Source: Escherichia phage Es2. From it: DNA of 64,000 nucleotides. The DNA lies in sequence record OR515477.1, one strand, 5' to 3'. Position 1 is the stretch's first letter. Every line of letters starts with the position of its first letter. Of the stretch, positions 17,543-36,703 are shown one piece after another. A model generated the notes under the pieces. It searched no databases. It was given only the letters and a program-made list of their open reading frames with translations, and was not told the DNA's origin. The translations under genes were made by a program, and so were the position numbers.

Positions 17543-17564
17543 GGACTAAGGGAGTATATAATTA

Positions 17565-19481: not shown

Positions 19482-19486
19482 TTTTA

Positions 19487-19517
19487 GGGGCCAGGACTTA
19501 ATTGTTCTGGCCTTTTG
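19487..19517 (+). terminator. intrinsic terminator
   Basis: Hairpin GGCCAG...CTGGCC followed by TTTT. Confidence 0.6.
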
Positions 19518-19535
19518 TGTTTCAAGGAACTCCAA

Positions 19536-19739: not shown

Positions 19740-19740
19740 T

Positions 19741-20187
19741 ATGAGAGAAAAAGTAAATGAATTATTAATCGAGGAAGCGAACAACTTCCCAATAAATAGG
19801 TTTATCAAATCGGATGGATCTATTAATAGAACTAAGATTAAGCAGTTACACCCCGACTTTCAACAAGAAGCGCTAAATCTTATATTTGTCAAGAAAGCTG
19901 TTGCAGCTCATGGGGTTTTCTTCGGGTATGAGCGTGTAAATTATAAGACAATGCAACAGCAGGTTGAGATATATTGTCCAGACCACAAGGGTTATTACTG
20001 GCAAACTGCTAGATCTCATTTAGAAGGGCATGGTTGTCGACTGTGCGCACACAAGGTTGTGCAGCGTATCACGGATTATGGAACTTATACCGTACCAGCA
20101 TGTTATCATAAATTTGTAATTGACGATAACCATATAGTTTGGTATAATAAGTTTTCAAAGTTAAGAATGGAGATAAATAGTGAGTAG
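19741..20187 (+). CDS. hypothetical protein with Cys/His cluster
   Basis: Track ORF 19699..20187 trimmed to ATG at 19741; CPDH...HGCRLCAH motif. Confidence 0.5.
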   Translation: MREKVNELLIEEANNFPINRFIKSDGSINRTKIKQLHPDFQQEALNLIFVKKAVAAHGVFFGYERVNYKTMQQQVEIYCPDHKGYYWQTARSHLEGHGCRLCAHKVVQRITDYGTYTVPACYHKFVIDDNHIVWYNKFSKLRMEINSE

Positions 20188-20470
20188 CTACATTGTATGG
20201 TCAAATCCATTAGCAGCACTTAGTAATAAATTATTTAAAACAGAATGGGGTAAAAACGAAATAGACTTAGGTAGTCGCCCAATACCAAATAAGCACCCAT
20301 TAGTACCCGAGCTATATAGGGTAGTTATAAATGGCACAGAGTATTTGGTCGATAAATTTGACAGAAAACGTTTACTAGAGGGTATCTACGATAATTCTAT
20401 ATCAATAAATGAATTAGTGGAACATGCCCAAATATATGATAAAAGCTGGATGTTAATATGGAAATCATAG
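20180..20470 (+). CDS. hypothetical early protein
   Basis: Track ORF 96 aa. Confidence 0.55.
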   Translation: MSSYIVWSNPLAALSNKLFKTEWGKNEIDLGSRPIPNKHPLVPELYRVVINGTEYLVDKFDRKRLLEGIYDNSISINELVEHAQIYDKSWMLIWKS

Positions 20471-20691
20471 CAATTATTTTAGTAGTTATGTTATTCATCG
20501 TAGTACTTGTATCTTTTGCTATTATGAGCAGAGCTAGAGAACTAGCAGAAGATCTAACAAAATTACGTGGTGAAGTGGCCGCCCTTAAACTACAGCGTGA
20601 GGCTTTAAAGTTGTTTGTAGTTCAGGGTAGCGTAGCTCATACACCAGAAGACTTCATCATATACCTCAAACGCTATATGGGGATTAAATAA
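20458..20691 (+). CDS. hypothetical membrane protein
   Basis: Track ORF 77 aa, N-terminal TM helix. Confidence 0.5.
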   Translation: MEIIAIILVVMLFIVVLVSFAIMSRARELAEDLTKLRGEVAALKLQREALKLFVVQGSVAHTPEDFIIYLKRYMGIK

Positions 20692-20876
20692 TGGAAACAC
20701 TTTTTCTTTTAATGCTCGTAGGTTCGTTAGTAGTTATATTAGCACTCCTATTAATCTGTAATATTCTTAATAATAAGAATTTAGGACTAAAGTGTGAGAA
20801 CCAAATCCTTAATCGTGAACTTGAGCAATATAACCTAGCAGCCCATAAACTATTAGACAAACTGGAGAATAAATAA
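20691..20876 (+). CDS. hypothetical membrane protein
   Basis: Track ORF 61 aa, N-terminal TM helix. Confidence 0.5.
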   Translation: METLFLLMLVGSLVVILALLLICNILNNKNLGLKCENQILNRELEQYNLAAHKLLDKLENK

Positions 20877-21475
20877 TGTTCACACAACAACCTATTCAAG
20901 TAGTACCAGACCATGAACTGAACACATGGGATTATAGCTTTAAAGATTTAACTGCTACTGTACAATTCAAATCTATGAAGCTAACATTTGCACACACTGA
21001 CCTTAGAGCATGTAAAGATCTTGAAGGTAAGCTAGAAGATGCTCGTAAGATTTTTGGCAAGGCTCGCATCCCGGCTGATAACCTGATTAATGCACTGATC
21101 GATGCAGGATACAAACTCGTGAAGGCTGAGGTTAACCGTCCTAGTACTCCAGTGACTATTAGAGATCCGTGGCAATCAGGGCCAATCGCAATGCTAAATA
21201 AATCATCGGATTTGCACAATGTTCCATGTGGCGGTACGCTGTCGTCTAATCAATCCTATCGAGTTGGGGAAGATTATGGGCCTTCTATACAGTTGAAACA
21301 TACTCAAGAAGCTCTTGAGTCTGACATGAAAAGCGTAGCACCGGGGAACTCTGGAGTTTCTAGGAATTCTGTCTATACTGTTCATTTAAACAATCCTGGT
21401 AATCATGGAAGTTTAGAGGATGCTATTATGGAGGCGTTGGGAGCTGTCATTAATGAAGATAAGAGAGGTAATTAA
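20876..21475 (+). CDS. hypothetical early protein
   Basis: Track ORF 199 aa. Confidence 0.6.
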   Translation: MFTQQPIQVVPDHELNTWDYSFKDLTATVQFKSMKLTFAHTDLRACKDLEGKLEDARKIFGKARIPADNLINALIDAGYKLVKAEVNRPSTPVTIRDPWQSGPIAMLNKSSDLHNVPCGGTLSSNQSYRVGEDYGPSIQLKHTQEALESDMKSVAPGNSGVSRNSVYTVHLNNPGNHGSLEDAIMEALGAVINEDKRGN

Positions 21476-21822
21476 TGATATTTGGTAAAACAAAAATAGC
21501 CCCTGCTGGGGAAAATTTAATTACTCTTAGCCTCTACTATAAGGATGAAAATGTAGAAATAGAAACATTAGAGTATGTTCTTATAAATACTAATAAGCCT
21601 AAAATAGGAGAGTTACTTGGTATAATCTCTAATATCTCTGATAGGGAAGATATTCCAAGTATAACACCAAAGAATATAGCTCACTTAGCACAACAATTAG
21701 GAATCTTGTGGTATAAAGTAGATCTTCCAGCTAAAGAAAGAACCAAAGGAACCTTTGCAGAGATCGCAAGAAAACCTAAGTCAGAAAAGAAAGAAACAGG
21801 GGAGCAAGCGTCTGATATATGA
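21475..21822 (+). CDS. hypothetical early protein
   Basis: Track ORF 115 aa. Confidence 0.55.
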   Translation: MIFGKTKIAPAGENLITLSLYYKDENVEIETLEYVLINTNKPKIGELLGIISNISDREDIPSITPKNIAHLAQQLGILWYKVDLPAKERTKGTFAEIARKPKSEKKETGEQASDI

Positions 21823-22532
21823 TTAAAGAAGCCGAAAAATTAAAACGTCTCATCCAGCTAGCGCGGGGTGCTACACAAAAGAGTCTTTCCCAGCTAACTA
21901 ATGAAGAAAAATATGCAGTAATGTTTTTAGGAGATCATTATCCTGCTAGGTGGGATAAAGGTAAGATCAAGTATGATCGTGATGCAAAACAAGTTGTTTG
22001 GTCAGGCTCATATGTAGAAGTGAATAAAGCATTAAAGGCTTTAGATCCTGAAGCAAAAGGTTTCTCTTCTAATGCTATTCATATTCTAATTGATGAAGAT
22101 CTCCCAAGATTTAAGGAAGCATCATTTAAAGAAGCATTAGCTAGTGAAGATCTTATTCCTTTTAAACACGGTAAGTATGCACATCTTCCACCACTAGAAA
22201 AAGAGAAACCTACTCTAGTTAAAGATGAAGTTTATCGTGGGATTGGCACAATGCTAGCGAGTTTGACTGTAGCTCTCCATAAAGATCTAGAGTTAACGCC
22301 CCTAGAAAACGCTGTGCATTTCATGTGCCATAAGTACGAGGATACATTTAAAGAGCTATGTAAGTCGCTAGGAATGCCAAGTTACACGATATTAAACTAT
22401 GCTCCTGAATATACTAGAGCAGCTCGTGGAACTATGGATTACGATGATACAGGATCCACTGCTTCCTATTTAGCAACTTATATCTACTTCGCATCCTTAG
22501 GTATCAAACTCAAATCCAAGAAGGAGGAATAA
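21819..22532 (+). CDS. hypothetical early protein
   Basis: Track ORF 237 aa; last coding gene before the repeat region. Confidence 0.6.
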   Translation: MIKEAEKLKRLIQLARGATQKSLSQLTNEEKYAVMFLGDHYPARWDKGKIKYDRDAKQVVWSGSYVEVNKALKALDPEAKGFSSNAIHILIDEDLPRFKEASFKEALASEDLIPFKHGKYAHLPPLEKEKPTLVKDEVYRGIGTMLASLTVALHKDLELTPLENAVHFMCHKYEDTFKELCKSLGMPSYTILNYAPEYTRAARGTMDYDDTGSTASYLATYIYFASLGIKLKSKKEE

Positions 22533-22549
22533 AAGTTAACAAAAAGTTC

Positions 22550-22579
22550 TTGCATTCTCATACCCAAACATGTTATAAT
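22550..22579 (+). promoter_or_regulatory. sigma70-like promoter firing into the non-coding repeat region
   Basis: TTGCAT - 18 bp - TATAAT; no ORF downstream. Confidence 0.45.
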
Positions 22580-22918
22580 AATCTCATAGATTAACAACTA
22601 CTCTAGTTGATTAACTCTAGGGGCGATGATTATTACACGAATGTCTCGTATAGCTTGCGGCCTAGCAACAGCGGTATGACGGCATGAGTACTCACGTAAT
22701 TAATCACGCGCCCACAGGAGAGACTCTCATGAAATTGGGGGTCTCTTTTTCTTTATATTATTTAAATATTTTTAATGGCAATATCTGTGTTCAAGATGAT
22801 ACACCTGTTGCCGCTCATCTGCTAGGATGGCACAACACTTTCTTCTAGACTCCTAAGTTTCTAGGAATAGTTGAGCACTAACTCTAGAGTTTACATTAAA
22901 CTTTAAATCTGTTTCTCT

Positions 22919-23075
22919 AGTCAACTCAGGCGGTTTTCATATTCCTAGAAACTCTAGCAATAGGCGGTTAATACAGGGCGGTTTTAGGGAGGGCGGTTAT
23001 TTCTAGAAGACATTTTTTGAAAACACATTTCTAGAAATTACTGTCGTATTTGCACACTGCATTTCTAGAAATTTA
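22919..23075. repeat. GGCGGTT direct repeats and ATTTCTAGAAAT palindromic 12-mers
   Basis: Four GGCGGTT(T/A) copies between 22919 and 23000; TTTCTAGAA(A/G) palindromes at about 23010, 23030 and 23062. Confidence 0.7.
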
Positions 23076-23643
23076 TGGTCGGATTTGCACAAACGCCTAA
23101 GTTTTTAGGAACATATAATCTCTTGAAAATGGCAGCATTATTTCGGGCCGAAGGCCCGTGATTGCCTGAGTTTTTAGAGCCACAAGAATTTTCACTTGTC
23201 AAGCTATTTTGCCCCATTTAGCAAATAAAATTTTACTTTATCTCCTCTAATCTCAAATTAACCCAAATCTTCTCAACTCTTCCCCAAAATACCCGCAAAT
23301 CAGGTGCTCCGCACCAAACATGCGCCTCTCCCACAGTTCCCCCAAAATTTCTCTCGCTCTCTCAACTTCTCCCCAAACATACACAATCACACACCCTCCA
23401 ATCGAAGCCACAAAAATCTTGTCGGATTCGCACATCTTAATCCTAGAAAAACCGTGTCGGATTTGCACATACCCCACAGGATTCGAACGCAGTTCGAGAT
23501 TGCTGGAGTTTTTAGGAAAATTCATTGTCGGATTCGCACACTATAAAAATTTTTCGGGTCGGATTTGCACACTACCAAAAATTGTCGGATTCGCACATAC
23601 ACGCCCGCACGTAACACCCGTGGAGCAATGTCGGATTTGCACA
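23042..23643 (+). repeat. eight direct copies of 15-bp motif (T/G)GTCGGATT(T/C)GCACA
   Basis: Copies at 23042, 23077, 23420, 23455, 23525, 23556, 23582 and 23629, all in the same orientation. Confidence 0.85.
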
Positions 23644-23667
23644 AAAGCGCAGGGCAATTGCCCTGCG
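23644..23667. repeat. perfect 24-bp palindrome AGCGCAGGGCAATTGCCCTGCGCT
   Basis: Read directly; centred on CAATTG, immediately after the last 15-bp repeat. Confidence 0.85.
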
Positions 23668-23880
23668 CTAAATGAGAATAAAAATAAGAATCATTCTCAT
23701 TTAGAAAGCGGAATGAGAATGATAATAATTCGCATTTAGAAAGCGAAATGAGAATCAATCTCATTTAAGAACGGAAACGAAAATTATTCAGGAAGTGAAA
23801 CGATTCTCATTTAGAAAGTGGAATGATTCTCATTTAGAAAGTGGAATGCAAATGATAATGATTCGCATTTAAGAATGGAA
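23668..23880. repeat. degenerate repeat family TCATTTAGAAAG(C/T)GGAATGA(T/G)
   Basis: At least six related copies with internal dyads (GAATGATTCTCATTC-like); a further copy at 24207-24232. Confidence 0.7.
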
Positions 23881-24012
23881 GTGAGAAACACTGTTATTTA
23901 AGTTATCCACAGACTTATCAACAGCACGATTTGACTTGACAAAATTCTAGCCATTTTGAGGCGTTATCAACAGACTTATCAACAGCTTATCCTACTGTAT
24001 AAATATACAGTA
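23880..24012. repeat. inverted-repeat arm L with DnaA-box-like 9-mers
   Basis: TTATCCACA at 23903 and TTATCAACA at 23915, 23964 and 23976; palindrome CTGTATAAATATACAG; reverse-complementary to 27111-27245. Confidence 0.8.
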
Positions 24013-24378
24013 TTCCTATGCAGTGAATAATTCTAATATACAGCTAAAACGCTCTCAAACGCATTCTAACGCGTTTAATTTTGGTGGGGATACTAAAACA
24101 CGGGCAAAATTGGAGGAGGCTTAGAAATTAGTTAGCTCGCTAACGATCACACAAGGCGACACGTAACATCCTAACCATTAGCAGGCTAACCATCGCGGGC
24201 GCGGTCAAATGAGAATGATTCTCATTTGAGAATTGGGGGCACTTCCTGATAGTTGCGCCCCGTGATTATTACAGTAGTGGGCAACCTTTACGCTTTGCCC
24301 ATTCCCGCCACTCATCTTGATGTCTAGACTTGCGACGGCGTACTAAAAACCATTTATACCAGTGATTAAACCATCGTT

Positions 24379-24582
24379 TCATAAATCCTCCTCCGGTAGT
24401 CGGTGCGTGATTTTTTCCTCCTCTCCGTAGGAATCCACTAAATGCTGATAATAACCATCGTGATCATAAATCACTTTATCATATTCGCCACGCTCGACCG
24501 CTTGTCGGTTTTCCGGCGTATCTGGCACGTAAAAAACATCAACCATTGTACTGATTTTGGTTACAACAATTTTATTGCTCAT
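24379..24582 (-). CDS. hypothetical small acidic protein
   Basis: Track ORF 67 aa; about 15 Asp/Glu against 7 Lys/Arg; last gene of the leftward operon. Confidence 0.55.
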   Translation of the reverse strand: MSNKIVVTKISTMVDVFYVPDTPENRQAVERGEYDKVIYDHDGYYQHLVDSYGEEEKITHRLPEEDL

Positions 24583-24607
24583 AATAACGCTCCGTTATTA
24601 TATAATC

Positions 24608-24952
24608 TCATTGTGCCACCTTTCGAAACGCTGTTTCAATACTTTCCGCAGTTGACTGAATATACGCGCCTTTCATGATCAGGCGCTCAGTGCATACCTT
24701 ACGGAAGATATTAATAAAATCATCTTCATTTTCTGCAATTAACGCTTCACCCATAACCTGAACGTCACAAGATGCAAAGGTCAAAAATTGAAACGCTAGT
24801 TCACGGGCAACGACCTCATTGATTTTATAATGCGCCTTGCCCTCATAAATATTAATAACGCCCTTATATGTTGGGGAAAGCTGATTTAAATAATTTGCTA
24901 ATAATGCTGGGCGGCAATTAGCAATAAAACGATTGCCTTCATAAATAACCAT
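24608..24952 (-). CDS. hypothetical protein
   Basis: Track ORF 24608..24967 trimmed to MVIYEG start with GGGAGG RBS. Confidence 0.55.
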   Translation of the reverse strand: MVIYEGNRFIANCRPALLANYLNQLSPTYKGVINIYEGKAHYKINEVVARELAFQFLTFASCDVQVMGEALIAENEDDFINIFRKVCTERLIMKGAYIQSTAESIETAFRKVAQ

Positions 24953-25079
24953 TTGACAGCCTCCCAATTAGATAGCCAGATAATAACATAAAGATCCCCA
25001 ATGAAAGGGGGTCATTTTTAAATAGGGTGGCGGTAAAACCGCCAGCCATTGCAAGGATGATAACAATAACGCTTTTCAT
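24939..25079 (-). CDS. hypothetical 46-aa membrane micro-protein
   Basis: Hand translation MKSVIVIILAMAGGFTATLFKNDPLSLGIFMLLSGYLIGRLSNGYL; overlaps neighbouring genes; below track cutoff. Confidence 0.4.
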   Translation of the reverse strand: MKSVIVIILAMAGGFTATLFKNDPLSLGIFMLLSGYLIGRLSNGYL

Positions 25080-25288
25080 AGTACCCCACGAAACGCAGCG
25101 TAAAAGGTGGCAAAATGTTTAACTGTTTCAGCTATCACGTTGCCGCGCTTGTCAAATTTCTTTTCTGTAACACGAAAGGCATTCTTATTACGTGCTACAT
25201 ATTCAATTTTACAATCTTCCCGCTCGAACGTGTTAACATCCACCAGCTTAAAGCCTTTCGAACGTGCAAGAGAAACATTGCGGATCAT
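25076..25288 (-). CDS. hypothetical basic protein
   Basis: Track ORF 70 aa; AGGAG RBS 8 nt upstream. Confidence 0.55.
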   Translation of the reverse strand: MIRNVSLARSKGFKLVDVNTFEREDCKIEYVARNKNAFRVTEKKFDKRGNVIAETVKHFATFYAAFRGVL

Positions 25289-25293
25289 TTTTA

Positions 25294-25440
25294 TTCTCCT
25301 TTACTAGTCATGCAGCCCAGCAGATAAGAAAATGCAGCGATACCCGCGCCAATAATAACCGCGTGAACACCGAAAGCTATTGCAAAAAGGGATAAAATAG
25401 CGCCCAAGATACCTGCTAGAATAGCTCGAAAAATAACCAT
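25294..25440 (-). CDS. hypothetical 48-aa membrane micro-protein
   Basis: Hand translation MVIFRAILAGILGAILSLFAIAFGVHAVIIGAGIAAFSYLLGCMTSKGE; GGAGA RBS; below track cutoff. Confidence 0.45.
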
Positions 25441-25486
25441 TTTCATTCTCCTAGTTTGCGGGGCGAAAGTAACGCCCCGTTATTAC

Positions 25487-25717
25487 TTACATTAAAACAA
25501 TTTTTGCCGCTTGTTTTTTAGTACAGTGTTCCGCTTTCAGGGTATCCAGCAAAAAGCCGGCCGTTTGCTGATCGATTTTATCGGCGTTGTATAGTTCTTG
25601 GATGGTGTTATAAGTTTTAGCAATGCCGAACTCCTGCACCATTTCATGAATGATGGCGCGATTAGATACCCAGCCTTGCGCGGTGAACAGATGACTAGCA
25701 GAAGAATAAGCAACCAT
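25487..25717 (-). CDS. hypothetical protein
   Basis: Track ORF 25487..25750 trimmed to MVAYSS start with GGAGG RBS. Confidence 0.55.
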   Translation of the reverse strand: MVAYSSASHLFTAQGWVSNRAIIHEMVQEFGIAKTYNTIQELYNADKIDQQTAGFLLDTLKAEHCTKKQAAKIVLM

Positions 25718-25835
25718 TTTAAACCTCCAAATTTTTGGGAAAATTTTCAACCGTCCTCAAACGGTGTAAAGGCATTATAACAAAAAAGGTCGCCATAAAA
25801 GGCGACCTTTACAAAACTTTACATTAGATTATTTA

Positions 25836-26846
25836 TTACTCGTTTTCGGTGTTAGTGGTAAAAGTAGAAATATCGATACCTTTTACCATTTCATCAATCA
25901 TTTCAGCGATGTTAAAACTTTGCACCATTTCCAACATTGCCGCTTCCATAGCTGCCCCTGCTACCGCTTTCGCTTTCTGGTTGCTTGGGGCATACTGGTC
26001 AACCGCTACGCTCAGCAGGTTGGCAATTACTACTCGACCGATAGGCGTATCAATATAACCTTTAATCATGAACGGTGCTTTTTTAGCCGCTACTTTCGTA
26101 ATTTGAGTCAGTGCAATTTTACCCGCTTCCAGTTTTGCAGCGTTTACAACGGCGGATTTATTAGCGGCAACGATGTTAGCAATCTTGGTCATGGTATTTT
26201 TTCCTTTATTTTCAGTGATTTGAGTATTAACGCTTTGAGTGTTAGAATTTACAGCATGGTTTTCTACGCTGTCAATAATCTGATCTTCATCTTTCCAGAA
26301 AGAAAAACCAGCGCTTTCTATATCCCCATCATAAATATACGGGTATAGCTCCCGTGGTAACAAAAAATTACCGTCGCCATCAAAAGCCATTATACCGGTA
26401 TATTGAGATCCGTCGTTATCCGGCTTATACCATCCAGCGGGTAAATACTTCCAGATAACATCTAAAAATCCCTCAATGCTAGAAAGTCCATTTATCAGAT
26501 CAAGCCCAATAAGCTCAAAACCATTTATATTAAATGATTGACGGCCTGAATTGCTATGATACGCAACAATAGTATTGCCCTGCGCAACAATAAAATCGGT
26601 ATCCGGCCCCGCTCCCCTGCCCGTAAAGATATGGCAATCCCGATTATGTAAAACTAGCGTTGCCCCTTGCTTATATAAGGGTAGAAAACTATCCATATCA
26701 TAGGCGTCATATTCATCAAAAAAGTTTTGATGAATAGTTTCAACCTTGTTAATAAAATGTTTAATGCTGGTTGACTTGCTACCGTCCAGCAGGTTACGCA
26801 ATGCACCTTTTAAGACGGTTGCGTTATCTGGTTTATAAAGCCTCAT
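25836..26846 (-). CDS. hypothetical protein with Ala/Lys-rich C-terminal half
   Basis: Track ORF 336 aa; first gene of the leftward operon. Confidence 0.65.
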   Translation of the reverse strand: MRLYKPDNATVLKGALRNLLDGSKSTSIKHFINKVETIHQNFFDEYDAYDMDSFLPLYKQGATLVLHNRDCHIFTGRGAGPDTDFIVAQGNTIVAYHSNSGRQSFNINGFELIGLDLINGLSSIEGFLDVIWKYLPAGWYKPDNDGSQYTGIMAFDGDGNFLLPRELYPYIYDGDIESAGFSFWKDEDQIIDSVENHAVNSNTQSVNTQITENKGKNTMTKIANIVAANKSAVVNAAKLEAGKIALTQITKVAAKKAPFMIKGYIDTPIGRVVIANLLSVAVDQYAPSNQKAKAVAGAAMEAAMLEMVQSFNIAEMIDEMVKGIDISTFTTNTENE

Positions 26847-27110
26847 TTGTTCGGCCTCCTCGTTAATCGGTGAGTGAATGATAAAGGTATTTTCTTTCTA
26901 GGGGCAAATATTATTTTACCTTTTTATTTTCTTTGCCTAACTCCTAGTTTTATGCTAATCGCGCAGCGGTACAGTAAAGAGCAAAACACGGCGAAGCCAC
27001 CAGGGCGACGGGTGAAGGCTTTACTTTAATATTACCCCACTGCATTTAGCTCGTTAGAAAGCGATTTAGGCCGCTTAAAATTGATTGCAGTTGTTAACAC
27101 TACCTTTTTA

Positions 27111-27245
27111 CCCTGTATATTTATACAGTAGGATAACCTGTGGATAAGTCTGTGTAAAAGTCCTTATATCGCCGCCTATCATGTCAAGTTATTTTACAAA
27201 ATGTATAAGTCTGTGGATAACTTAAATAATAGTGTTTCTCACTAA
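27111..27245. repeat. inverted-repeat arm R with DnaA-box-like 9-mers
   Basis: TGTGGATAA at 27139 and 27212; palindrome CTGTATATTTATACAG; reverse-complementary to 23880-24012. Confidence 0.8.
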
Positions 27246-27410
27246 CTAATTTATGCAGTTATTATATCGTAAAATATAGTTAGTTGGCTAATAGGATTTT
27301 AAAGTGATTATGAGTCCGCTAATTAAACCTGAAAAACTCATTAGCTAGTCTGCTAATCATTTTGATATAATATAATAGAGATTAAATTAATAACATAAGG
27401 AAACAATTAG

Positions 27411-27929
27411 ATGCCTAAATATAAACATATAGATTATGACCTTTTTAATAGTTACTTTTATTATGATGAAACATCGTTATCATTTTTACGCTGGCGAGAA
27501 GATCATGCCATCGCTGGTGGTTTAAATGGTAATTATTGGCAAGTTGAATTATTAGATAAAGGACAATTCAAAGTACATAGAATTATTTTTTGTATAATGA
27601 ATGGTGGTATAGATAGCGAGCTAATGATTGATCATATTGATCGTAACCCCCGTAATAATAACATTTGGAATCTTCGCGCGGTTGATAGTTCCCAGAATAA
27701 CTATAATAAGACTCCTAGTGAGTATGAAAACTATAAGCGTGCTAATGGTATCCCTAGAAACATTTACGTTAATAAAATTCGCCCCCGTGATAGTTTCGGG
27801 CGTGATTATTTAACTGCTCAAATTAAGAATCCTATTACTAACAAGCGTGTTAGTAAGTCTGGTTATGATTTACAAGAGTTATTATTATGGCTTGAAGCTA
27901 AAAAAGCTGAATTCGGAATTGTCAATTAA
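27411..27929 (+). CDS. HNH endonuclease (homing-endonuclease-like)
   Basis: 172 aa; HIDRNPRNNNIWNLR...SQNNYNK His-Me finger pattern; AT-rich gene inside a more GC-rich module. Confidence 0.65.
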   Translation: MPKYKHIDYDLFNSYFYYDETSLSFLRWREDHAIAGGLNGNYWQVELLDKGQFKVHRIIFCIMNGGIDSELMIDHIDRNPRNNNIWNLRAVDSSQNNYNKTPSEYENYKRANGIPRNIYVNKIRPRDSFGRDYLTAQIKNPITNKRVSKSGYDLQELLLWLEAKKAEFGIVN

Positions 27930-28154
27930 TTTATTTTATAAATTAACTCGTTTAGTCTTGATTTTTAAAAGTCAAGACCTTTTTCAACTATTTTTCAATT
28001 TTGCGGTTGTTAAATATTTGTTAAACCGAAAATAAGCCGCCTAAAACGCCCCAGAACGCGATGAAAGTTTTAGTCATGCCATTGCATTGCCTACCCTCGT
28101 TTATCGCTACCACGAGCTTTTTAGATTTTGTCAAGTAGGGGAAAGCAAATATAA

Positions 28155-28445
28155 ATGAAAAAATTACTTGCCTATCTGCTATGTTTTGTGGTATTCACGC
28201 GCCCGTTTCTTTTAATTTTAGTGTGCCGCGCCCTAGTCGCCGCACGCCGTCCGGTGAATCGTGTCTTTACGTTTCTTTACAAAAATAAGGTTGCGCCATT
28301 TTCGGGAATCCCCTATTATTTATCACGTAGGGCGGCAATGACGAACTACACGGCGGGAAGTTTACCGCCACGCTCTTTAAAAATTGGGTATATCTTAAAG
28401 CCTATCGGCGGTAAACTTATTCATTATAAGGAATCGACGATATGA
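28155..28445 (+). CDS. doubtful ORF (possible small secreted protein)
   Basis: Track ORF 96 aa with hydrophobic N-terminus, but GC-rich and structured region; could be non-coding. Confidence 0.25.
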   Translation: MKKLLAYLLCFVVFTRPFLLILVCRALVAARRPVNRVFTFLYKNKVAPFSGIPYYLSRRAAMTNYTAGSLPPRSLKIGYILKPIGGKLIHYKESTI

Positions 28446-28645
28446 AACAAACGCTTTTGATAACTGGTAAACCAGCTAAAAAATTAGATGGTACTACTAA
28501 AAAATTGTTGACAGTAGCGCAAAGATCCATAAGATATAGATTCACGCAGTACAAGAAAGGCCGCCAGCAAGGTTTAGAAATGATCTGGCGAAATATTATG
28601 ATTGACCTGAAAGAAAATCATAAAAAACTGCAAAAAATTGTTTGA
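28442..28645 (+). CDS. hypothetical small basic protein
   Basis: Track ORF 67 aa; bracketed by a 17-bp perfect inverted repeat. Confidence 0.5.
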   Translation: MKQTLLITGKPAKKLDGTTKKLLTVAQRSIRYRFTQYKKGRQQGLEMIWRNIMIDLKENHKKLQKIV

Positions 28646-28670
28646 CACCCTAGCCGATAGGCTTTAAGAT
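28642..28670 (+). promoter_or_regulatory. sigma70 promoter overlapping an inverted-repeat arm
   Basis: Consensus TTGACA at 28642, 17-bp spacer, TAAGAT at 28665; overlaps IR arm 28653-28669. Confidence 0.5.
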
Positions 28671-28875
28671 GTACCCAGTTCGATGAGAGCGATAACTTGA
28701 TACAATTTGACGGTCGGTGCTTACCATAATGCATCCCGCCCCCTAACTGGGATATAGCGGCCTGAGTGGAGTTCTTTAAATTGATTATAATGGCGAGCGG
28801 ATTGTTACTTATTACCTGCTACTATTTTCTAGTAGGTAATGCGAAACAATCCCCTAAATAACTGGAGTTTATACT

Positions 28876-29127
28876 ATGCAAAACGTTACTAATGCGCCGA
28901 AAATTGGTCAATCCGTTTTTATCCCTTTCGTTACCAAAACGGATGAATTAACCGGAAAAGCCGAACGTATTAAAGGTGCGGCGCTTATGCCGTTCGATAC
29001 AATCGACGCGGTATACGCTGAAAATGAACGCAGTAACAACGGCAAGCCGATTTATAACGTTCGCGTTAAATCCGGCGACGTTGTAAAGGTTGTTCAACGC
29101 AACGAAAAATGGGAAGCTGTACTGTAA
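28876..29127 (+). CDS. hypothetical pre-early protein
   Basis: Track ORF 83 aa, GGAG RBS; followed by a 9-bp-stem hairpin at 29143-29168. Confidence 0.6.
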   Translation: MQNVTNAPKIGQSVFIPFVTKTDELTGKAERIKGAALMPFDTIDAVYAENERSNNGKPIYNVRVKSGDVVKVVQRNEKWEAVL

Positions 29128-29225
29128 TCTAGTGTTAACTTTATATTCCCCTGAAATATGGGGAATATAACGATTAACATTAGTTAATCATAATCCCTTA
29201 AATTAAACTAATAGGAGTTTATATC

Positions 29226-29633
29226 ATGACTAACGCAAAAACCGCAAAATTCGCATGGAATGAAGAAAACACCCAAAAAGCTGTTACCATGTACCAGCAG
29301 TTAATCAACGAAAACGGTTTAGATTTCGCAAATAGTGACGGGCTGAAAGAGATTGCAAAAGCAGTAGGCGCGGCTTCTCCCGTATCCGTTCGCTCAAAAT
29401 TGACCAGTGCAAAAGCCTACCAGAAAAGCGATAAGCCGCGTAAAGTTGGCGGCGGCAGTTCTGTACGCAAAGCGCATTATGTGCGTGTTATTGCTAAACA
29501 TGCCATTGATTCCGGCATTATCAAAGACGCTGACGATCTGGCATCACTGGAAAGTGCAAAACTTGAAACGCTGGACGCGGTAGCGCAATTGCTAGGCGTT
29601 GCCGATGAAGTGAAACAAGCCGCAGGCGAATAA
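29226..29633 (+). CDS. A2: A2-like pre-early protein (putative DNA-binding)
   Basis: 135 aa; position immediately upstream of the A1-like gene; assignment by synteny and size only. Confidence 0.5.
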   Translation: MTNAKTAKFAWNEENTQKAVTMYQQLINENGLDFANSDGLKEIAKAVGAASPVSVRSKLTSAKAYQKSDKPRKVGGGSSVRKAHYVRVIAKHAIDSGIIKDADDLASLESAKLETLDAVAQLLGVADEVKQAAGE

Positions 29634-29722
29634 TAGTTATACATTGCCCTTCCTAGTGGGAGGGCAATAATATAACTGTTTAGCGATAGTTATTTTCTTC
29701 CCTTAAATCAGGAGTTTTAAAA

Positions 29723-29920
29723 ATGATTTTCTTTCCTACTGAATCATTAATTTTAGGCTTGTTTATTATGGCGGCCTCATTATTGTTCGCTTATTTTCAA
29801 AATGATTTAGATTCATATTATTTTAAACGTAAATCTAAGTTAGCAAAGCGTTTAGGTCTGATTTGTTTTATTGCCGCCGTTGCTTGTGGTGTTAGTTCTA
29901 GCCTTATGCCTTTAAATTAA
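29723..29920 (+). CDS. hypothetical membrane protein
   Basis: Track ORF 65 aa, two hydrophobic segments. Confidence 0.5.
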   Translation: MIFFPTESLILGLFIMAASLLFAYFQNDLDSYYFKRKSKLAKRLGLICFIAAVACGVSSSLMPLN

Positions 29921-30016
29921 TGTTGCAAATTATAACGCCTATTATTCAAGGCGTTATATTTGGCAATATTTGCCAATAACAAACGTTTTTTAATCCCTTT
30001 AATGGAGTTTATTACT

Positions 30017-31681
30017 ATGATTATTTCCGCAGAAAAACAAACCGTTATCCTGAAAATGGCCGCTGACTTTAATTTCTATGGTAAACGTCTGCGCGCCACT
30101 AAACTGGAGGTCTGCGACGATATATCAAAAGCGGTCTACGATACAACAAAACACTCGACCGCCATTTGTGATTGGCTGGAAGCAAATAAACCAGTTAAAC
30201 CAAAAGCTGCAAAAGTAGCAAAAGCTATTAAAAACGATGAGCGCCCCGAAGCGGCTGGGATCGTTTCTAGCACGGTTGAACAGTGGGAAGTAAAACAAGG
30301 CAAACGCTTTATTATTACGTCGATTCAGAATAATACTTTCCCGCATAAAAACTTTTTGGCCTCGCTTGAACAGTATGCTAAATACATCGGCGCTGATTTG
30401 CTTGTTTCTAAGTATATTTATAATAAAAACGGCTTCCAAAATGGTGAAGGTGCGGATGGAATCAAATATGATTCCGCGTTCGATAAGTATATTTGCAGCA
30501 AAAACGTGTTTTTAAACAACCGCCGTTTTGCTTTCATGGCTGAAATTAACGTTTTGCCTACCGCAGATTATCCGCTTTCTGGATTCGCTGAAACTGCAAC
30601 GGCGCTTAATCTTGAAGGTCTGGCAATTGGTCACGCTAAAATCACCGCCGAAAGCGTGCCAGCTTTAAAAGGTGAAGTAGTACGCCGCATGTACTCAACC
30701 GGAACGGCAACGCTAAAAAACTACATTCAGCAGAAAGCAGGGCAAAAAGCGGAAGCGCTGCATAACTTCGGTGCGCTGATTGTTGAGTTCGACGAAGACG
30801 GTGAGTTTTTTGTACGCCAGCTTGAAACAATGGACGAAAGCGGGGTGTTTTATGATCTGAATGTTTGCGCTACTCCCGCAGGATGCTATGAAACATCGGG
30901 GCATGTTTTAGGTTTACAATATGGCGACATCCACGCAGAAAAATTAGATGATGATTGTGCCGTTGCGTCATGGGCTGGCGAAAATAGCTTGCTTGATATT
31001 CTTAAACCAAAATATCAGTTTATCCATGACGTTCACGATTTTACATCTCGCAATCATCATAATCGTGCGTCCGGTGTATTCCTAGCGAAACAGTACGCCG
31101 CCGGACGTGATAAAGTTCTGGATGATCTTATCGATACGGGGCGCGTGCTGGAATCAATGGAACGTGATTTTAGTCAAACGATCATTGTTGAATCGAATCA
31201 CGATTTGGCGCTATCCCGTTGGCTGGATGATCGTAATGCTAACATTAAAGACGATCCAGCAAACGCCGAACTATATCACCGCCTGAATGCTGCAATTTAC
31301 GCGGCAATCGGTGAACACGACGAAACGTTTAACGTGTTAGATTATGCGCTGCGCAAGGTTGCAGGTTGCGAGTTTAACGCCATTTTCCTAACAACTGACC
31401 AATCATTTAAAATTGCAGGCATCGAGTGTGGCGTACACGGTCACAACGGCATTAACGGAAGCCGTGGCAATCCTAAACAGTTTAAGAAATTGGGCAAACT
31501 GAACACGGGGCATACGCATACGGCAAGCATTTACGGCGGGGTATACACCGCTGGCGTGGCTGGTAGTCTGGACATGGGTTACAACGTTGGCGCGTCAAGC
31601 TGGACGCAAACGCATTTAATTACCTATGCAAACGGTCAGCGCACTTTGATTGACTTTAAAAACGGTAAATTCTTTGCGTAA
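30017..31681 (+). CDS. A1: A1-like pre-early protein with metallophosphatase motifs
   Basis: Track ORF 29960..31681 trimmed to ATG at 30017 with GGAG RBS (554 aa); ESNHD and GHTHT phosphoesterase-like motifs. Confidence 0.7.
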   Translation: MIISAEKQTVILKMAADFNFYGKRLRATKLEVCDDISKAVYDTTKHSTAICDWLEANKPVKPKAAKVAKAIKNDERPEAAGIVSSTVEQWEVKQGKRFIITSIQNNTFPHKNFLASLEQYAKYIGADLLVSKYIYNKNGFQNGEGADGIKYDSAFDKYICSKNVFLNNRRFAFMAEINVLPTADYPLSGFAETATALNLEGLAIGHAKITAESVPALKGEVVRRMYSTGTATLKNYIQQKAGQKAEALHNFGALIVEFDEDGEFFVRQLETMDESGVFYDLNVCATPAGCYETSGHVLGLQYGDIHAEKLDDDCAVASWAGENSLLDILKPKYQFIHDVHDFTSRNHHNRASGVFLAKQYAAGRDKVLDDLIDTGRVLESMERDFSQTIIVESNHDLALSRWLDDRNANIKDDPANAELYHRLNAAIYAAIGEHDETFNVLDYALRKVAGCEFNAIFLTTDQSFKIAGIECGVHGHNGINGSRGNPKQFKKLGKLNTGHTHTASIYGGVYTAGVAGSLDMGYNVGASSWTQTHLITYANGQRTLIDFKNGKFFA

Positions 31682-31735
31682 TTAAATTATTACCCTAGCG
31701 GCTTGAAATACAGCCGCTATTATAGGAGTCAAAAA

Positions 31736-31993
31736 ATGAAAGTTACATTACCCAAAACATTAGACGAAAAAGCGTTTATTTCCCCCGATGAAATGGAATC
31801 CGATAAAGTTTACAGCTTCGGGCCTATCCTAGCCGCCAAAACTAATACTGATGGAATTATTACAGTCGATTATCGTGATAATGATATTGTTCCCTTTGAC
31901 GATGATGACGCTTTTTACGAGTGGTTAAGCGATAATAATTTACCCGTAAGTGGTGAATTAACGCCGTATCAGATGCAAATCATTATCAAATAA
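31736..31993 (+). CDS. hypothetical pre-early protein
   Basis: Track ORF 31703..31993 trimmed to ATG at 31736 with AGGAG RBS. Confidence 0.55.
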   Translation: MKVTLPKTLDEKAFISPDEMESDKVYSFGPILAAKTNTDGIITVDYRDNDIVPFDDDDAFYEWLSDNNLPVSGELTPYQMQIIIK

Positions 31994-32032
31994 TTTAAAT
32001 CCCCTTATTAAACTAATTGGAGTTTTATAACT

Positions 32033-32425
32033 ATGAAAAAGCAAAATATCCCATTCGACCGCGCTCAGTCCTCAATTGTTCTGGTTTATTCCAACGGCGA
32101 ACGTTACCACGTCGAGGCGGGGCACGTTATTGATGACCTATTAGATTTCAATGACGCTTTGCAGGTTACTACCTTTGCATATACGCAGGGCAAACTAACC
32201 AGCCATATTAAAGCAAAAGGCGTTTATGTTGACACGGTGAAACAAGAAACGATTATCATCGACGCCGTAAAATCCGGCCTAGCCTTTGCAGTTGTCGCGC
32301 CTTGCCTCGCTTGCCTTGATGATCAATTGATTAGTGCAAAGGTCTACACATGTGCGGGGATTCGTTCTAGCGTATCCGGTGAGGATGTTAGTTTTATCGC
32401 TGATGCGTTGGCTTATGGTCTTTAA
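32033..32425 (+). CDS. hypothetical pre-early protein
   Basis: Track ORF 130 aa, GGAG RBS. Confidence 0.6.
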   Translation: MKKQNIPFDRAQSSIVLVYSNGERYHVEAGHVIDDLLDFNDALQVTTFAYTQGKLTSHIKAKGVYVDTVKQETIIIDAVKSGLAFAVVAPCLACLDDQLISAKVYTCAGIRSSVSGEDVSFIADALAYGL

Positions 32426-32505
32426 TAGTTGATTTATTATTGCCCGCTTATAAATAGCGGGTAATGCTGAATTAATCTAATCCCTTAAATGGAGAACGTA
32501 ACAAA

Positions 32506-33240
32506 ATGAGTCAAGTTAAAACGAATATTACCCGCTCTTTCCCGCATATTTCCCGCGTTATGATTTGGGATCTGGACGGCACTATCATTAATTCTTTCCA
32601 TCGTGTAGCGCCTTGTTTTGATAGCGAGGGCAATTTAGATTTAAATAAATATAAAAATGAAGCCTGCAAACATCATTTAATAATGCAGGATTCATTATTG
32701 CCATTAGTTGAATATATGCGCCAGTGTATGAATGACGCTAACACGTTAAACATTATTTGCACCGCTCGACTGATGAGCAAGTCAGATTATTATTTCTTGC
32801 GTAAACAAGGATTGCGGGGGCGTGGAAATAGCAATATCCGCGTGTTTTCCCGCGATACCCTGCACAAATACTTTAAAGCTGATAAAGTTAGCGAGATATA
32901 CCACAGTAAGGACGCAGTTTATAAATCTTATTATTTTGAATTATTTAAACAATTATATCCGAACGCTGATTTTACAATGATTGATGATCATAAAGGCGTG
33001 TTAGCGGCGGCGGCATCATACGGATTTAAAACGCTGGACGCACAAGCCGTTAACGATATTCTATCAATCGGTGTTACATTGATTGGTGAAACCTTTATTG
33101 ATGAATCGCTCGACGATGATAATGATTATCAGTTCCTAGCAGACCGCCTGCAATTATGTTGGGAAGGTATGACCGAGGAAGAACGCGCAGAATATAGTTG
33201 CAGTCCTCAACAGTACATCGAGAAATTAAAAGTTGCATAA
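32506..33240 (+). CDS. dmp: 5'-deoxyribonucleotidase, HAD family
   Basis: 244 aa; HAD motif I IWDLDGTIINS; size and position match my recollection of T5 dmp. Confidence 0.75.
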   Translation: MSQVKTNITRSFPHISRVMIWDLDGTIINSFHRVAPCFDSEGNLDLNKYKNEACKHHLIMQDSLLPLVEYMRQCMNDANTLNIICTARLMSKSDYYFLRKQGLRGRGNSNIRVFSRDTLHKYFKADKVSEIYHSKDAVYKSYYFELFKQLYPNADFTMIDDHKGVLAAAASYGFKTLDAQAVNDILSIGVTLIGETFIDESLDDDNDYQFLADRLQLCWEGMTEEERAEYSCSPQQYIEKLKVA

Positions 33241-33397
33241 TAATTAAAGTTGAAATAGTCACGGTGTGTAATGATAACATGCCGTGACTATTAGTCTGCT
33301 AAGTACCGGGCGGTAATGAGACTCATTCTCATCTGGTGGGCCACTGGACACACCTCCATGTGTAATCTTATGAAATTTGGCAAAAAGGTAATTAGCG

Positions 33398-33601
33398 CTA
33401 TTTACGGACTGACTGCTCAAAGACTTCCCGCCACAGAGGGTCAGTCTTAACTAGATTATTAATATGCTCAATAGCTTCATCAAATCTCATGAATCCTTCC
33501 GGGATTTCCGAAGACTTAGGAAAAACTTGCAGCATCTCCTGTGTGATACCCATCTTTTCAAGATCTTCTTGGGTTAACTTAAACTGTCCGAATTCTTTCA
33601 T
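33398..33601 (-). CDS. hypothetical protein
   Basis: Track ORF 67 aa. Confidence 0.5.
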   Translation of the reverse strand: MKEFGQFKLTQEDLEKMGITQEMLQVFPKSSEIPEGFMRFDEAIEHINNLVKTDPLWREVFEQSVRK

Positions 33602-33843
33602 GAACTTCTCCTGTCTACCGGCTTATCTCCAGATTCTGACATACGAAATCTCTTTCGTGACGCCCGAGAACCGTCCGCCCACTCCCTCTCAAACTCCGCA
33701 CGTTTCTTCGCAAACCTCCGCTCTCTTTCCGCAATCTCCCGCGACACTTCCGCAATATATTTACGATGCGTATTAATAGCCGCAGTCATTCCGAAAACTC
33801 CCGCGATTACCCCGATAATAAAAGCAATTACAATACTAAACAT
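33598..33843 (-). CDS. hypothetical single-pass membrane protein with charged tail
   Basis: Track ORF 81 aa; N-terminal TM helix then Arg/Glu-rich region. Confidence 0.5.
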   Translation of the reverse strand: MFSIVIAFIIGVIAGVFGMTAAINTHRKYIAEVSREIAERERRFAKKRAEFEREWADGSRASRKRFRMSESGDKPVDRRSS

Positions 33844-34030
33844 CTAGTTCTCTCTCAATTTGCAGAATACGAGTGCTATCACAACGTTGCAATTCTACTA
33901 ATTTTTCTATAGCAAATTGTTGTTGTTTTACCTGGGCCTCTAGAGTTTTTAGGCGAACGTACACGGTGTAAGAAATAATGAAAGCTGACCAAACTGCTAG
34001 TACTATTAATATAGCTACTACTTCCATCAT
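33836..34030 (-). CDS. membrane micro-protein, paralog c
   Basis: Track ORF 64 aa MMEVVAILIV...; TM helix plus coiled-coil tail; ATGA overlap with paralog b. Confidence 0.5.
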   Translation of the reverse strand: MMEVVAILIVLAVWSAFIISYTVYVRLKTLEAQVKQQQFAIEKLVELQRCDSTRILQIERELDV

Positions 34031-34134
34031 TTACGTTTCTCCAGTAACAGAGTTTCAATTCTAGCTAAGTGGTTATCTAAAATACATTGCCCGATAATCA
34101 CAATCCCTAGTAGTGCAATAATTACCCATTCCAT
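34027..34134 (-). CDS. membrane micro-protein, paralog b (35 aa)
   Basis: Hand translation MEWVIIALLGIVIIGQCILDNHLARIETLLLEKRK; below track cutoff. Confidence 0.45.
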   Translation of the reverse strand: MEWVIIALLGIVIIGQCILDNHLARIETLLLEKRK

Positions 34135-34289
34135 TGTTTACGCTCCTCTAATAAAATTTCAATCCTAGATAATCTGTTACTCAACTGCATTAATTTAGCT
34201 TCTACTTGTGTTATAGAGGTATCTATTACACGTAAGCCTACAAAGAGAAGTATCAGTAAGATGAATATGCCAATAATTACCCATTCCAT
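34122..34289 (-). CDS. membrane micro-protein, paralog a (55 aa)
   Basis: Track ORF 34122..34319 trimmed to MEWVIIGIFILL start that overlaps upstream stop (TAATG). Confidence 0.5.
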   Translation of the reverse strand: MEWVIIGIFILLILLFVGLRVIDTSITQVEAKLMQLSNRLSRIEILLEERKQWNG

Positions 34290-34480
34290 TAAATCCACCC
34301 CGCCATAGCTGCTAACCAAAAACCTACGAAAATAAAGAATAGGATAGTTCCGAACCCAAAACTATTTATCCAGCTATCATATACCTCTCCACGTCTGCTC
34401 TTTCTTTTGTTTGACATATCTTTCATGCTCCTATAAATGTGATTTTTGAAATATTCTATAATTTGTGCACAACCGACCAT
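34289..34480 (-). CDS. hypothetical membrane protein
   Basis: Track ORF 63 aa; C-terminal hydrophobic segment. Confidence 0.5.
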   Translation of the reverse strand: MVGCAQIIEYFKNHIYRSMKDMSNKRKSRRGEVYDSWINSFGFGTILFFIFVGFWLAAMAGWI

Positions 34481-34593
34481 GCCTGTGAACTCATAGAAGG
34501 ACTTCTACTTTTCTTACATAGTGGTTTCTGCCAATATACCATCCAAGAAATAAAAAATTTAGTTTACTTGGATGTCTTTTTGTTTTATACTAA

Positions 34594-34860
34594 TTACAGG
34601 TAATTAGATTGCTCTAGTTTAAATTTACAATCACCGTATTTAAGGTCAAACTGACTGAGATCCCACCACCCAAACTTAGTACGGAGCTGTACTACTGGAA
34701 AGCGATCTCCCTTAATACGAACTTTTTGAACCTTGAGGCCGTAATGTTCCTCTCCAGCACCACCAAAAGATTTTACAAACCCCGTACAAAATGGTTTGGG
34801 GGCAGGTGCACAACCAGATAACATAACTGCGGCAACTAGTGCAATCACAAACTTTTTCAT
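34594..34860 (-). CDS. llp: Llp-like lipoprotein (candidate receptor-blocking lytic-conversion protein)
   Basis: 88 aa; signal peptide with lipobox LSGC; divergent from the receptor-binding protein gene. Confidence 0.65.
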   Translation of the reverse strand: MKKFVIALVAAVMLSGCAPAPKPFCTGFVKSFGGAGEEHYGLKVQKVRIKGDRFPVVQLRTKFGWWDLSQFDLKYGDCKFKLEQSNYL

Positions 34861-34945
34861 ATTTATCTCTCCATTTCTAATTTATGAATCTATTATAGCA
34901 AAATAGAGAGATGAAAGCAAATACATTTTTATAATAGGAGATTAT

Positions 34946-36703
34946 ATGGGTTTTTTCGCTGGAAAATATAGCGATGGTAAGACCGTACTATCTTTAAATA
35001 CTGAATCTGGTGGTGACATTAATCGTCACTATAGCCCAAATGCCAATAGTATTTTTCATAGTGATATGCCATTTGTCCTAGTTGATGGTACTTACGAGGC
35101 TGGGTTAGGTAATGCCGGGAATGGGTTTTTTGTATGTCAAATGCCCTCTGACATAATAAATATTAAATCTAATGACCCGGGTAGAGTTATACTAACTGCT
35201 ATTGAAATTAATGGTACTCACAGAGCTTTTCTTAATGGTACTCAGAGTAAGGTTGGTCAAACTATAGTTGCCACTCAGGCAGACCCCTTTAGGTCTTTTG
35301 CCAGTGTTTCTCAAACCAGTGGATTTGCATTTGGTAATAGTCTAGCATCTGGCACTTATAACTACAACCCCTCTCTAGGGCATGAAGAATCTATCTCTAG
35401 AAGTGGCACAGGGGGTACTACGTTACATAGTACGTATCATGGTATAGTTAGGCCCGGTGGTGGAGCACCTGTAGGAGTTACTGTTGCAGAAGCCTTTGCA
35501 CAATTAGGTTTTCCTACTAATAGTAGCACAGTACCTGTAGATGGTAATAACCCATACTATTGGGATCCTGGATGGATGGCTCCTCTAGGAGCAGCATATA
35601 GGGGGCATGATTGGTTTTATGTTTGCAATTCTAATATACGTGGATATGGTGGGGTTAGGCAAGGGCTCCCTGGTAATGTAAATACTATGTACCATGATGG
35701 TGGTAATAGATTTGTTTGTAGAGGGTCTACTACTAATTTAGCTAACCAGTCGGGTGACTCTACAATACTACAGGACTGGTATAATATAACTCCTACTAAG
35801 GTTATTTGGTATGTTCTTAATTTAAGGTACTCAAATGGTGGAATGAGTATTTCAGGTAACCCTTTCACTGGTTCTGATATTCTTATATCTCCTTCTAATT
35901 TTATAATTAAAGGGGTAAGTCTCCCTAATACCGGGTATAAATTTATTAATCAGAATGCTTTTGGTAACCTAGGTTACCGTCCTGATATGGAGTATATAGG
36001 GAATAACGCTGCGTATACTGGGGTTTTTGGGGATACCACTGCAAGGTGTGAACTTGTAGGATCTAGTAATGGAGGGTTGTGGTCTCCTGTAGATTATGGA
36101 GGTGCCAAATCACAGATTAGCATTTACAAATTTGGAGCAGGTAAACAGTGGTATGTAAACTCTAACGATAATACTATTGGTAATGAGCATGGGGTTGTTT
36201 GGGGACCATCAGCAGTTCCATTACGACTTTTTGGAGGAAATGTAGGTAGCTCTTACATGGGGGATGATATTACTCCTAGCTATCCAGGAACTGGGGATAG
36301 GTACGTTGGTTTATCAACTATTGGGCTAGGTATACCTGGTGGCAATGCTACAGTAATTCTTACTACTGAAGTTATATCAGGTAATCTTAACTGTGCAGGT
36401 GTCCCAGCTAACACATGGAATAATGGTGTGTTTCAAGTACAAGGAAGAAAAGCGCATAGTTATAGTAATGGAGATGCAATATTCCACCAGATTCTAACGC
36501 TACCTGTGGGCTATCTAGTACCTTTTCATACTACAGCAGCTTTTAGATACACCCCTAATAATGCTTTAAGCAGGAATAGTTTTATATATACCGCTAAAAA
36601 CCTAGGAAATGGAAATGTAGAGTTAGGGGTAGTTATGCATGTCAGTTTAGGTAGTGCAGTTTTCTTACCTAGACTAAGAGTAACAGTTCAACGCCTTACC
36701 TAA
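34946..36703 (+). CDS. oad: receptor-binding tail protein (pb5-like)
   Basis: 585 aa, Gly/Asn-rich; position next to llp and before terminase; receptor identity not determinable here. Confidence 0.65.

Follow-up and report, generated by a model that had tools for sequence, protein, structure and literature searches.

Why do pre-early genes of the phage T5 type lie in the interior of a deposited phage sequence, with early genes on one side and late genes on the other? We addressed this question for a stretch of 64,000 nucleotides from Escherichia phage Es2 (record OR515477.1; one strand, 5' to 3'), referred to below as the window. Searches with T5 proteins (tblastn) place a T5-type pre-early module between the tRNA and early genes and the genes for a lipoprotein, a receptor-binding protein and the terminase, which bears out an original prediction made from the sequence alone. 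With a probability of about 92%, positions 23177-33349 are one assembled copy of a ~10.2-kb T5-like direct terminal repeat that became internal through repeat collapse. The feature is already known and ordinary, and its value is practical, not conceptual. The virion ends should be set at window positions 23177 and 33349, the true genome would be ~10.2 kb longer than the one-copy contig, and ~17 genes would be present in two copies.

One copy of the terminal repeat between two unique flanks

The boundaries of the module were mapped with five reference genomes, each of which was deposited with two terminal repeats: T5 (AY543070), BF23 (OR083247), MM-1 (PV577657), NBSal005 (NC_048857) and Stitch (NC_027297). 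The window reads as the T5 map's reverse complement, and the single kept copy of the long direct terminal repeat spans 23177-33349 (10,173 bp, compared with 9,743-10,822 bp in the reference genomes). Position 23177 corresponds to the right terminus of T5 and to the inner end of its left repeat, and position 33349 corresponds to T5 position 1 and to the inner end of the right repeat.

Both boundaries match the mapped genome termini of relatives. At 23177, T5 aligns both with its last base (121750) and with the inner end of its left repeat (10219). The last base of MM-1 (118039, annotated RTR) and the first base of NBSal005 fall on the same position. The end of the BF23 repeat (9743) aligns to 23177 without gaps, and the termini of that phage were set from reads with PhageTerm (PMC10644984). 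In Stitch, which belongs to a different genus, the annotated boundary corresponds to window position 23172, 5 nt from 23177. The other side was mapped with T5, MM-1, NBSal005 and Stitch, BF23 being left out. Position 1 of MM-1, position 1 of Stitch and the final base of NBSal005 align to 33349; the T5 annotation gives 33350. The sequence around the 23177 junction is conserved, with 95% mean column identity over 124 nt, and at 33349 a conserved block spans the boundary, with CACTGGAC on one side and ACACCTCCATGTGTAATCTTATGAAATTT on the other. The module had been predicted at 22500-34600. It is indeed there, but the predicted extent is too wide, by 677 bp on the left side and by ~1,250 bp on the right side. 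In the two-repeat reference genomes, the stretches that correspond to 22500-23176 and 33350-34600 lie outside the repeat, in unique sequence.

A 21-nt repeat, CGTGATTGCCTGAGTTTTTAG, occurs in three copies near the inner boundary (23088-23108, 23157-23177 and 23495-23515). The copy at 23157-23177 ends exactly at the boundary, and the repeat might be part of terminase recognition. A GC-rich hairpin (GGGCCGAAGGCCC, 23146-23158) lies just outside the same boundary.

The attachment of the flanks was analyzed by comparing the window with both ends of MM-1 (megablast). Positions 411-24600 match MM-1 from 32041 to 9011, running from the tRNA and early genes into the inner part of the left repeat. Positions 23177-58520 match MM-1 from 118039 to 82682, running from the right repeat into the receptor-binding gene, the terminase and the head and tail genes. 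The two MM-1 chains share the repeat only, and the unique flanks are colinear with MM-1, where the sequence at 411-23176 follows the left repeat and that at 33643-58520 precedes the right repeat. Comparison with NBSal005 and T5 leads to the same result. In the virion genome, these two repeat/flank junctions sit on different copies. Here, a single copy is attached to both unique flanks, and the layout is therefore that of a repeat-collapsed assembly. Within the 64-kb window, neither a second copy of the module nor any long direct repeat was found. A junction-spanning search was set aside as non-discriminating, because the junction between the repeat and the early region is real in every T5-like genome, and the colinearity of both flanks through one copy was used instead.

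This layout is expected if, in the virion, the repeat stands at both ends of a linear genome that would run, in window orientation, from 23177 round the remaining sequence to 33349. The assembler would have merged the two identical copies, being unable to separate identical sequences, and would thereby have linked both unique flanks through one of them. The resulting contig would have the topology of an intracellular circle or of a concatemer junction, with an arbitrary start point, and the pre-early genes would therefore come to lie with the early/tRNA genes on one side and the late genes on the other.

Single-copy deposits of this type are frequent. The A1 gene, one of the pre-early genes of the module, was found at 560 places in 482 records of the phage collection, so that two copies can be present in no more than 78 records (16%). 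At least 84% of the A1-holding records are thus single-copy, and many have A1 far from either end. In many T5-like GenBank records, dmp, A1 and A2 stand within the late region or the repeat contains late genes, which Davison blames on the difficulty that assembly software has with large terminal repeats (bioRxiv 10.1101/866236). For such genomes, assemblers choose the first base randomly, and the repeat appears at twice the average coverage (PMC5557969). The window is one further case of the documented one-copy, arbitrarily permuted T5-like assemblies, which form the majority of deposits.

Two considerations weigh against a collapsed virion repeat. The two copies in the virion are argued from five relatives only, and the same layout is also that of a genuine intracellular form, so that DNA taken from infected cells would make the contig not strictly an artefact. 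The contig could in that case be the true circular or concatemeric replicative form, with one repeat between unit genomes, sampled from infected cells or from a metagenome. After infection by T5, circles one repeat shorter than the genome are formed, followed by concatemers, from which the terminase regenerates two-copy linear genomes (10.1101/866236; PMC10644984), and electron microscopy has shown circles that fall short of T5 length by one terminal repeat (cited by Davison, 10.1101/866236). The layout of this form is identical to that of the window and indistinguishable from assembler collapse by sequence alone. However, most such deposits derive from purified virion DNA, and we consider a replicative form improbable as the source of this contig. 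It would also leave the practical conclusion unchanged, with the virion ends at 23177 and 33349.

There is still less reason to regard the layout as the true virion gene order, in a lineage that lacks terminal redundancy or has shifted cut sites and in which one copy of the pre-early module would lie internally. Such a phage would represent a T5-like lineage without the classical two-step injection geometry, and nothing beyond the lack of mapped ends for the source sequence speaks for it. Against it, both boundary sequences are conserved with phages of mapped ends, the terminase subunits are 98-99.8% identical to those of T5, and the region of the injection stop signal (iss) retains its anatomy and its place beside the boundary. 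Two-step injection, moreover, needs the module at a genome end. Given this conservation of cut sites, terminase and iss anatomy, we judge a single internal module to be very improbable. Least probable of all is a head-to-tail circularised two-repeat genome, or a correctly ended linear record crossed by the window: the 121,040-bp record of NBSal005 carries a circular flag and contains both copies, but a head-to-tail join would give two adjacent copies, and the one copy (10,173 bp) between both unique flanks, with no long direct repeat in 64 kb, refutes such a join of a two-copy genome. The original prediction had named a 'circularised or repeat-collapsed' assembly. Collapse to one copy is supported by the mapped boundaries and by the single copy that links both flanks in colinearity with MM-1, and full-length head-to-tail circularisation falls with the single copy.

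The injection-stop region at the inner end of the repeat

The inner end of the collapsed repeat is marked by an untranslated, repeat-rich block (22850-24400) that corresponds to 'Repeat Region 3' of T5 and maps to T5 9140-10489 with 86% identity in a global alignment. The equivalent of the T5 'injection stop signal (iss)' (AY543070 9140-10149) lies at 23247-24396, based on the T5 annotation and the alignment mapping. The block straddles 23176/23177, with ~300 bp in unique DNA. Similarly, in T5, 270 bp of Region 3 extend beyond the left repeat (Davison, bioRxiv 10.1101/866236). The repeats predicted at 22.9-24.0 kb are real, and both halves of their proposed role as an 'injection-stop or repeat boundary' hold, as the T5 iss maps within the block and the block straddles 23177. 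These repeats (23-24.4 kb) are part of the conserved injection-stop region and are not an assembly scar, a replication origin or the end of a mobile element.

Several repeat families are present in this region. The 15-mer TGTCGGATTYGCACA, of the DRD type, has eight matches in the window, compared with 0.00 expected by chance. The DRD repeats overrun the boundary: six copies are inside the terminal repeat (23420-23643, plus strand) and two are in the unique DNA outside it (23042-23091, plus strand), where they are part of a 35-nt tandem repeat. The T5 'major DNA single-chain interruption' (T5 9748/9749) has its homologous site at 23646/23647, between the A and the GCGC at the foot of the palindrome GCGCAGGGCAATTGCCCTGCGC, and this A/GCGC sequence is conserved with T5 in the alignment mapping. 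We infer that the interruption would be on the plus strand, because the T5 feature is on the minus strand and the window is the reverse complement. Seven palindromes of the type AATGAGAAT(C/G)ATTCTCATT occur at 23682-23904 and 24207-24232 and fall within the known T5 set of DRE and palindrome elements. They somewhat resemble a Fur box (GATAATGATAATCATTATC).

Two 131-nt blocks in inverted orientation carry paired DnaA or DnaA-like boxes, with 3 bp between the members of a pair. The first, an IRD'-spacer-IRC' block (23880-24010), is defined by the inverted-repeat pairs I1 and I2, by alignment and by Davison's description (10.1101/866236), and contains two such pairs, TTATCCACA-GAC-TTATCAACA and TTATCAACA-GAC-TTATCAACA. 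Its inverted partner, IRC-spacer-IRD (27113-27243), corresponds to 'Repeat Region 2' of T5 and has three consensus DnaA boxes on the minus strand. Four of the six consensus DnaA boxes of the window fall in these two blocks. As six boxes are not above the 8.1 expected by chance in the whole window, only the clustering in the blocks is meaningful and not the window-wide count. A scan of 22400-35000 for promoters and terminators detected 49 promoter-like sites, compared with 37.6 +/- 6.0 in shuffled sequences, and proved uninformative.

At the edge of the IRC' block, beside the paired DnaA boxes, the sequence TACTGTATAAATATACAGTA (23993-24012) is one mismatch away from the LexA/SOS-box consensus, with 0 such sites expected by chance. 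The Escherichia coli consensus is TACTG(TA)5CAGTA. A weaker copy is present in the inverted partner (27111-27130). The core ACTGTATAAATATACAGT is exactly kept in T5, MM-1 and NBSal005, and CTGTAT-N4-ATACAG is also found in BF23 and Stitch. On sequence grounds, TACTGTATAAATATACAGTA is a possible candidate for a host-LexA site in first-step-transfer DNA. A search of the literature for LexA together with T5 returned nothing relevant, and LexA is unmentioned in Davison's iss paper (10.1101/866236). The automated annotation of MM-1 (PV577657) includes more than 12 open reading frames (ORFs) of 30-50 codons across the iss/repeat region (9229-10950). These calls, like the many other tiny ORFs predicted there by automated pipelines, are probably spurious, since the curated T5 record has no coding sequence in this region.

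In T5, the repeat with the dmp end enters the cell first, entry pauses at the iss, the pre-early genes are expressed, and A1 and A2 are needed for the remainder of the genome (Davison, 10.1101/866236; PMC10644984). By analogy, the module of the window would be first-step-transfer DNA that enters from the dmp end. Entry would pause at the untranslated iss region (~23.25-24.4 kb), where the DRD repeats and paired DnaA boxes lie. Expression of dmp, A1 and A2 by host RNA polymerase would follow, and the A1 and A2 proteins may in turn let the remaining genome enter. The window itself shows the homology, the order of the genes, the boundaries, the topology of the flanks and the anatomy of the repeats, and it is from T5 that we infer two-step injection in the source phage.

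Genes of the module and its flanks

The source phage of the window is a Tequintavirus by its sequence matches. A megablast search with 22500-34600 against the phage collection matched 555 records, nearly all of them T5-like phages of Salmonella, Escherichia and Klebsiella, and the best 30 of these 555 matches show ~90% identity over 84-91% of the query. The 17 kb upstream (6000-23000) give a similar match pattern in the same collection. The nearest deposited relatives are ~91-95% identical, and no record in the collection reaches at least 99% identity over a long stretch.

For the gene content, each coding sequence of the T5 left terminal repeat (AY543070) was compared with the window by tblastn. 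The gene order is that of T5 read as the reverse complement, with dmp, A1 and A2 in that order from the outer (T5-left) end. The pre-early proteins are 85-100% identical to those of T5 at the amino acid level, except for T5.013 (67%) and the HNH protein (56%), and no match to T5.003 or T5.016 was detected in the window. PHROGs annotations are concordant (DNA transfer protein, DNA binding protein, polynucleotide kinase/dmp family and HNH). Pfam gave no match for dmp, A1, A2, the receptor-binding protein or T5.156, and PHROGs and direct tblastn searches were therefore needed for these proteins.

The last gene before the end of the repeat is the deoxynucleoside-5'-monophosphatase gene dmp (32506-33240, plus strand, 95.5% amino acid identity to T5 dmp, phrog_415), which is 109 nt from the 33349 boundary. 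It is preceded by the T5.002 homologue (32033-32425, plus strand, identified by PHROGs and tblastn) and by a small ORF (31703-31993, plus strand, phrog_8297). The latter has no T5.003 match, and a different gene therefore occupies the T5.003 position. The 'DNA transfer protein' A1 (30017-31681, plus strand) is 94.6% identical to T5 A1 over 556 amino acids and matches phrog_1745 at 5e-245; the mechanical ORF begins at a TTG at 29960, and homology to T5 A1 begins at 30017. In T5, A1 is involved in host DNA degradation, host shut-off and second-step transfer, and A2 is needed for second-step transfer. The homologue of the small membrane protein T5.005 (29723-29920, plus strand, 98.5% identity, phrog_4820) lies between A1 and the DNA-binding protein A2 (29226-29633, plus strand, 98.5% identity to T5 A2, phrog_1725). 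Further inward are the T5.007 (28876-29127), T5.008 (28442-28645) and T5.009 (28338-28442) homologues, all on the plus strand and supported by tblastn and PHROGs.

An HNH homing endonuclease gene (27411-27929, plus strand, Pfam HNH_3, phrog_99) occupies the position of hegG in T5, with which its product shares 56% of amino acids. Its site, like that of T5 hegG, is between Repeat Regions 1 and 2. MM-1 has no match to window 27244-28037, and the HNH insert is absent there. This pattern fits homing endonucleases that were inserted independently, or replaced, at a single site. The genes between this insert and the iss region are on the minus strand. They comprise the T5.011 homologue (25836-26846, 336 aa, 89.6% identity, phrog_4263), which carries DUF7566 (PF24450 at 1.4e-113), and the small pre-early ORFs homologous to T5.012-T5.015 and T5.017 (24379-25750, based on tblastn, the ORF list and phrog_4379). 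Among these we located T5.012 (25490-25717), T5.013 (25294-25440), T5.014 (25079-25288, 100% identity), T5.015 (24611-24952) and T5.017 (24382-24582).

The early flank (20876-23176, plus strand) includes a T5.019 homologue (20876-21475) and two ORFs (21475-21822 and 21819-22532), followed by an untranslated spacer that reaches the boundary. It is colinear with MM-1 11968-10408 and NBSal005 107036-110218. The plus-strand early genes extend to 22532, and 16 tRNA genes are found at 423-5912. Across 1858-17279 there are seven copies of a 65-nt early-promoter-like element (TTGCT...TATAAT...ATAAATTGATGAGG), which fits the well-known strong early promoters of T5, where the leader and the ribosome-binding region downstream are conserved.

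On the other side of the repeat, unique DNA (33350-34480) encodes small membrane proteins on the minus strand, homologous to T5.162-T5.159 (33643-34417). The T5 annotation puts T5.159-T5.162 just outside the right repeat. An additional ORF of 67 aa (33398-33601, minus strand) lies in the ~250-bp segment between the boundary and the T5.162 homologue. This segment (33399-33642) has no BLAST match in T5, MM-1 or NBSal005, and the ORF is found at 95% identity in the Salmonella phages S130 and S131. The T5.162-T5.159 homologues are followed by a lipoprotein gene (34594-34860, minus strand, 88 aa, Pfam LPAM_1), the product of which has no match to T5 Llp, and by the gene of a receptor-binding tail protein (34946-36703, plus strand, 585 aa) that is 30% identical to T5 pb5. 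MM-1 and NBSal005 share this receptor module, annotated as a Cor superinfection exclusion protein and a receptor-binding tail protein. The divergence of these proteins suggests a receptor other than FhuA. The small terminase subunit, T5.156-like (36714-37196), and the large subunit (37196-38512) are 98% and 99.8% identical to their T5 counterparts, respectively. Further into the late region, one gene contains a 21-nt periodic coding repeat (GAGACTAATGCTAAGGCTAGT-like, encoding ETNAKAS heptads, 57810-58633) and, from its colinearity with MM-1, probably encodes the L-shaped tail fibre.

Comparison with known terminal repeats

One of the closest known systems is T5 itself, whose repeats (AY543070 1-10219 and 111532-121750) are the first-step-transfer DNA. 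The T5 repeat and the window are ~84-89% identical at the nucleotide level. They share dmp, T5.002, A1, T5.005, A2, T5.007-T5.009, the HNH gene, T5.011-T5.015 and T5.017 in order, the iss/Repeat Region 3 by the boundary, the 131-nt inverted blocks with paired DnaA boxes, the GCGC nick-site and the boundary sequences. The window differs from T5 in the unmatched T5.003 and T5.016, in the HNH protein (56% amino acid identity), in the length of the repeat (10,173 compared with 10,219 bp) and in the number of DRD copies, of which nine are reported for T5 (Davison, 10.1101/866236) and eight are found here. A further difference is one of arrangement, as the module is present once and internal in the window but twice and terminal in the T5 record.

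The repeats of MM-1 (10,407 bp), NBSal005 (10,822 bp) and BF23 (9,743 bp by PhageTerm) are closer in sequence, with ~90-92% nucleotide identity and the same boundary positions. Unlike the window, these records have both copies at their ends. In MM-1 and NBSal005, a Cor-like lipoprotein and a 585-aa receptor-binding protein come after the repeat, as in the window. The arrangement of the window is instead found in Salmonella phage phC11 (OQ680480, 107,372 bp, match at 71418-83147), SCF (PP735124), OSYSP (NC_047835) and ECOP18 (NC_105825). These are single-repeat, permuted deposits with one internal copy, and they match through both junctions (e.g., query 14-12101 and 21-12099); the window does not differ from them in any substantial way.

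The short direct terminal repeats of T7 and T3 undergo the same collapse by assemblers, and the same diagnostic applies to them (PMC5557969). In read data, the peak of forward read starts stands left of that for reverse starts, and depth is twofold between the two (PhageTerm, PMC5557969). The T7 and T3 repeats are 160-231 bp long and non-coding, whereas the repeat described here is 10 kb long and carries a whole temporal class of genes.

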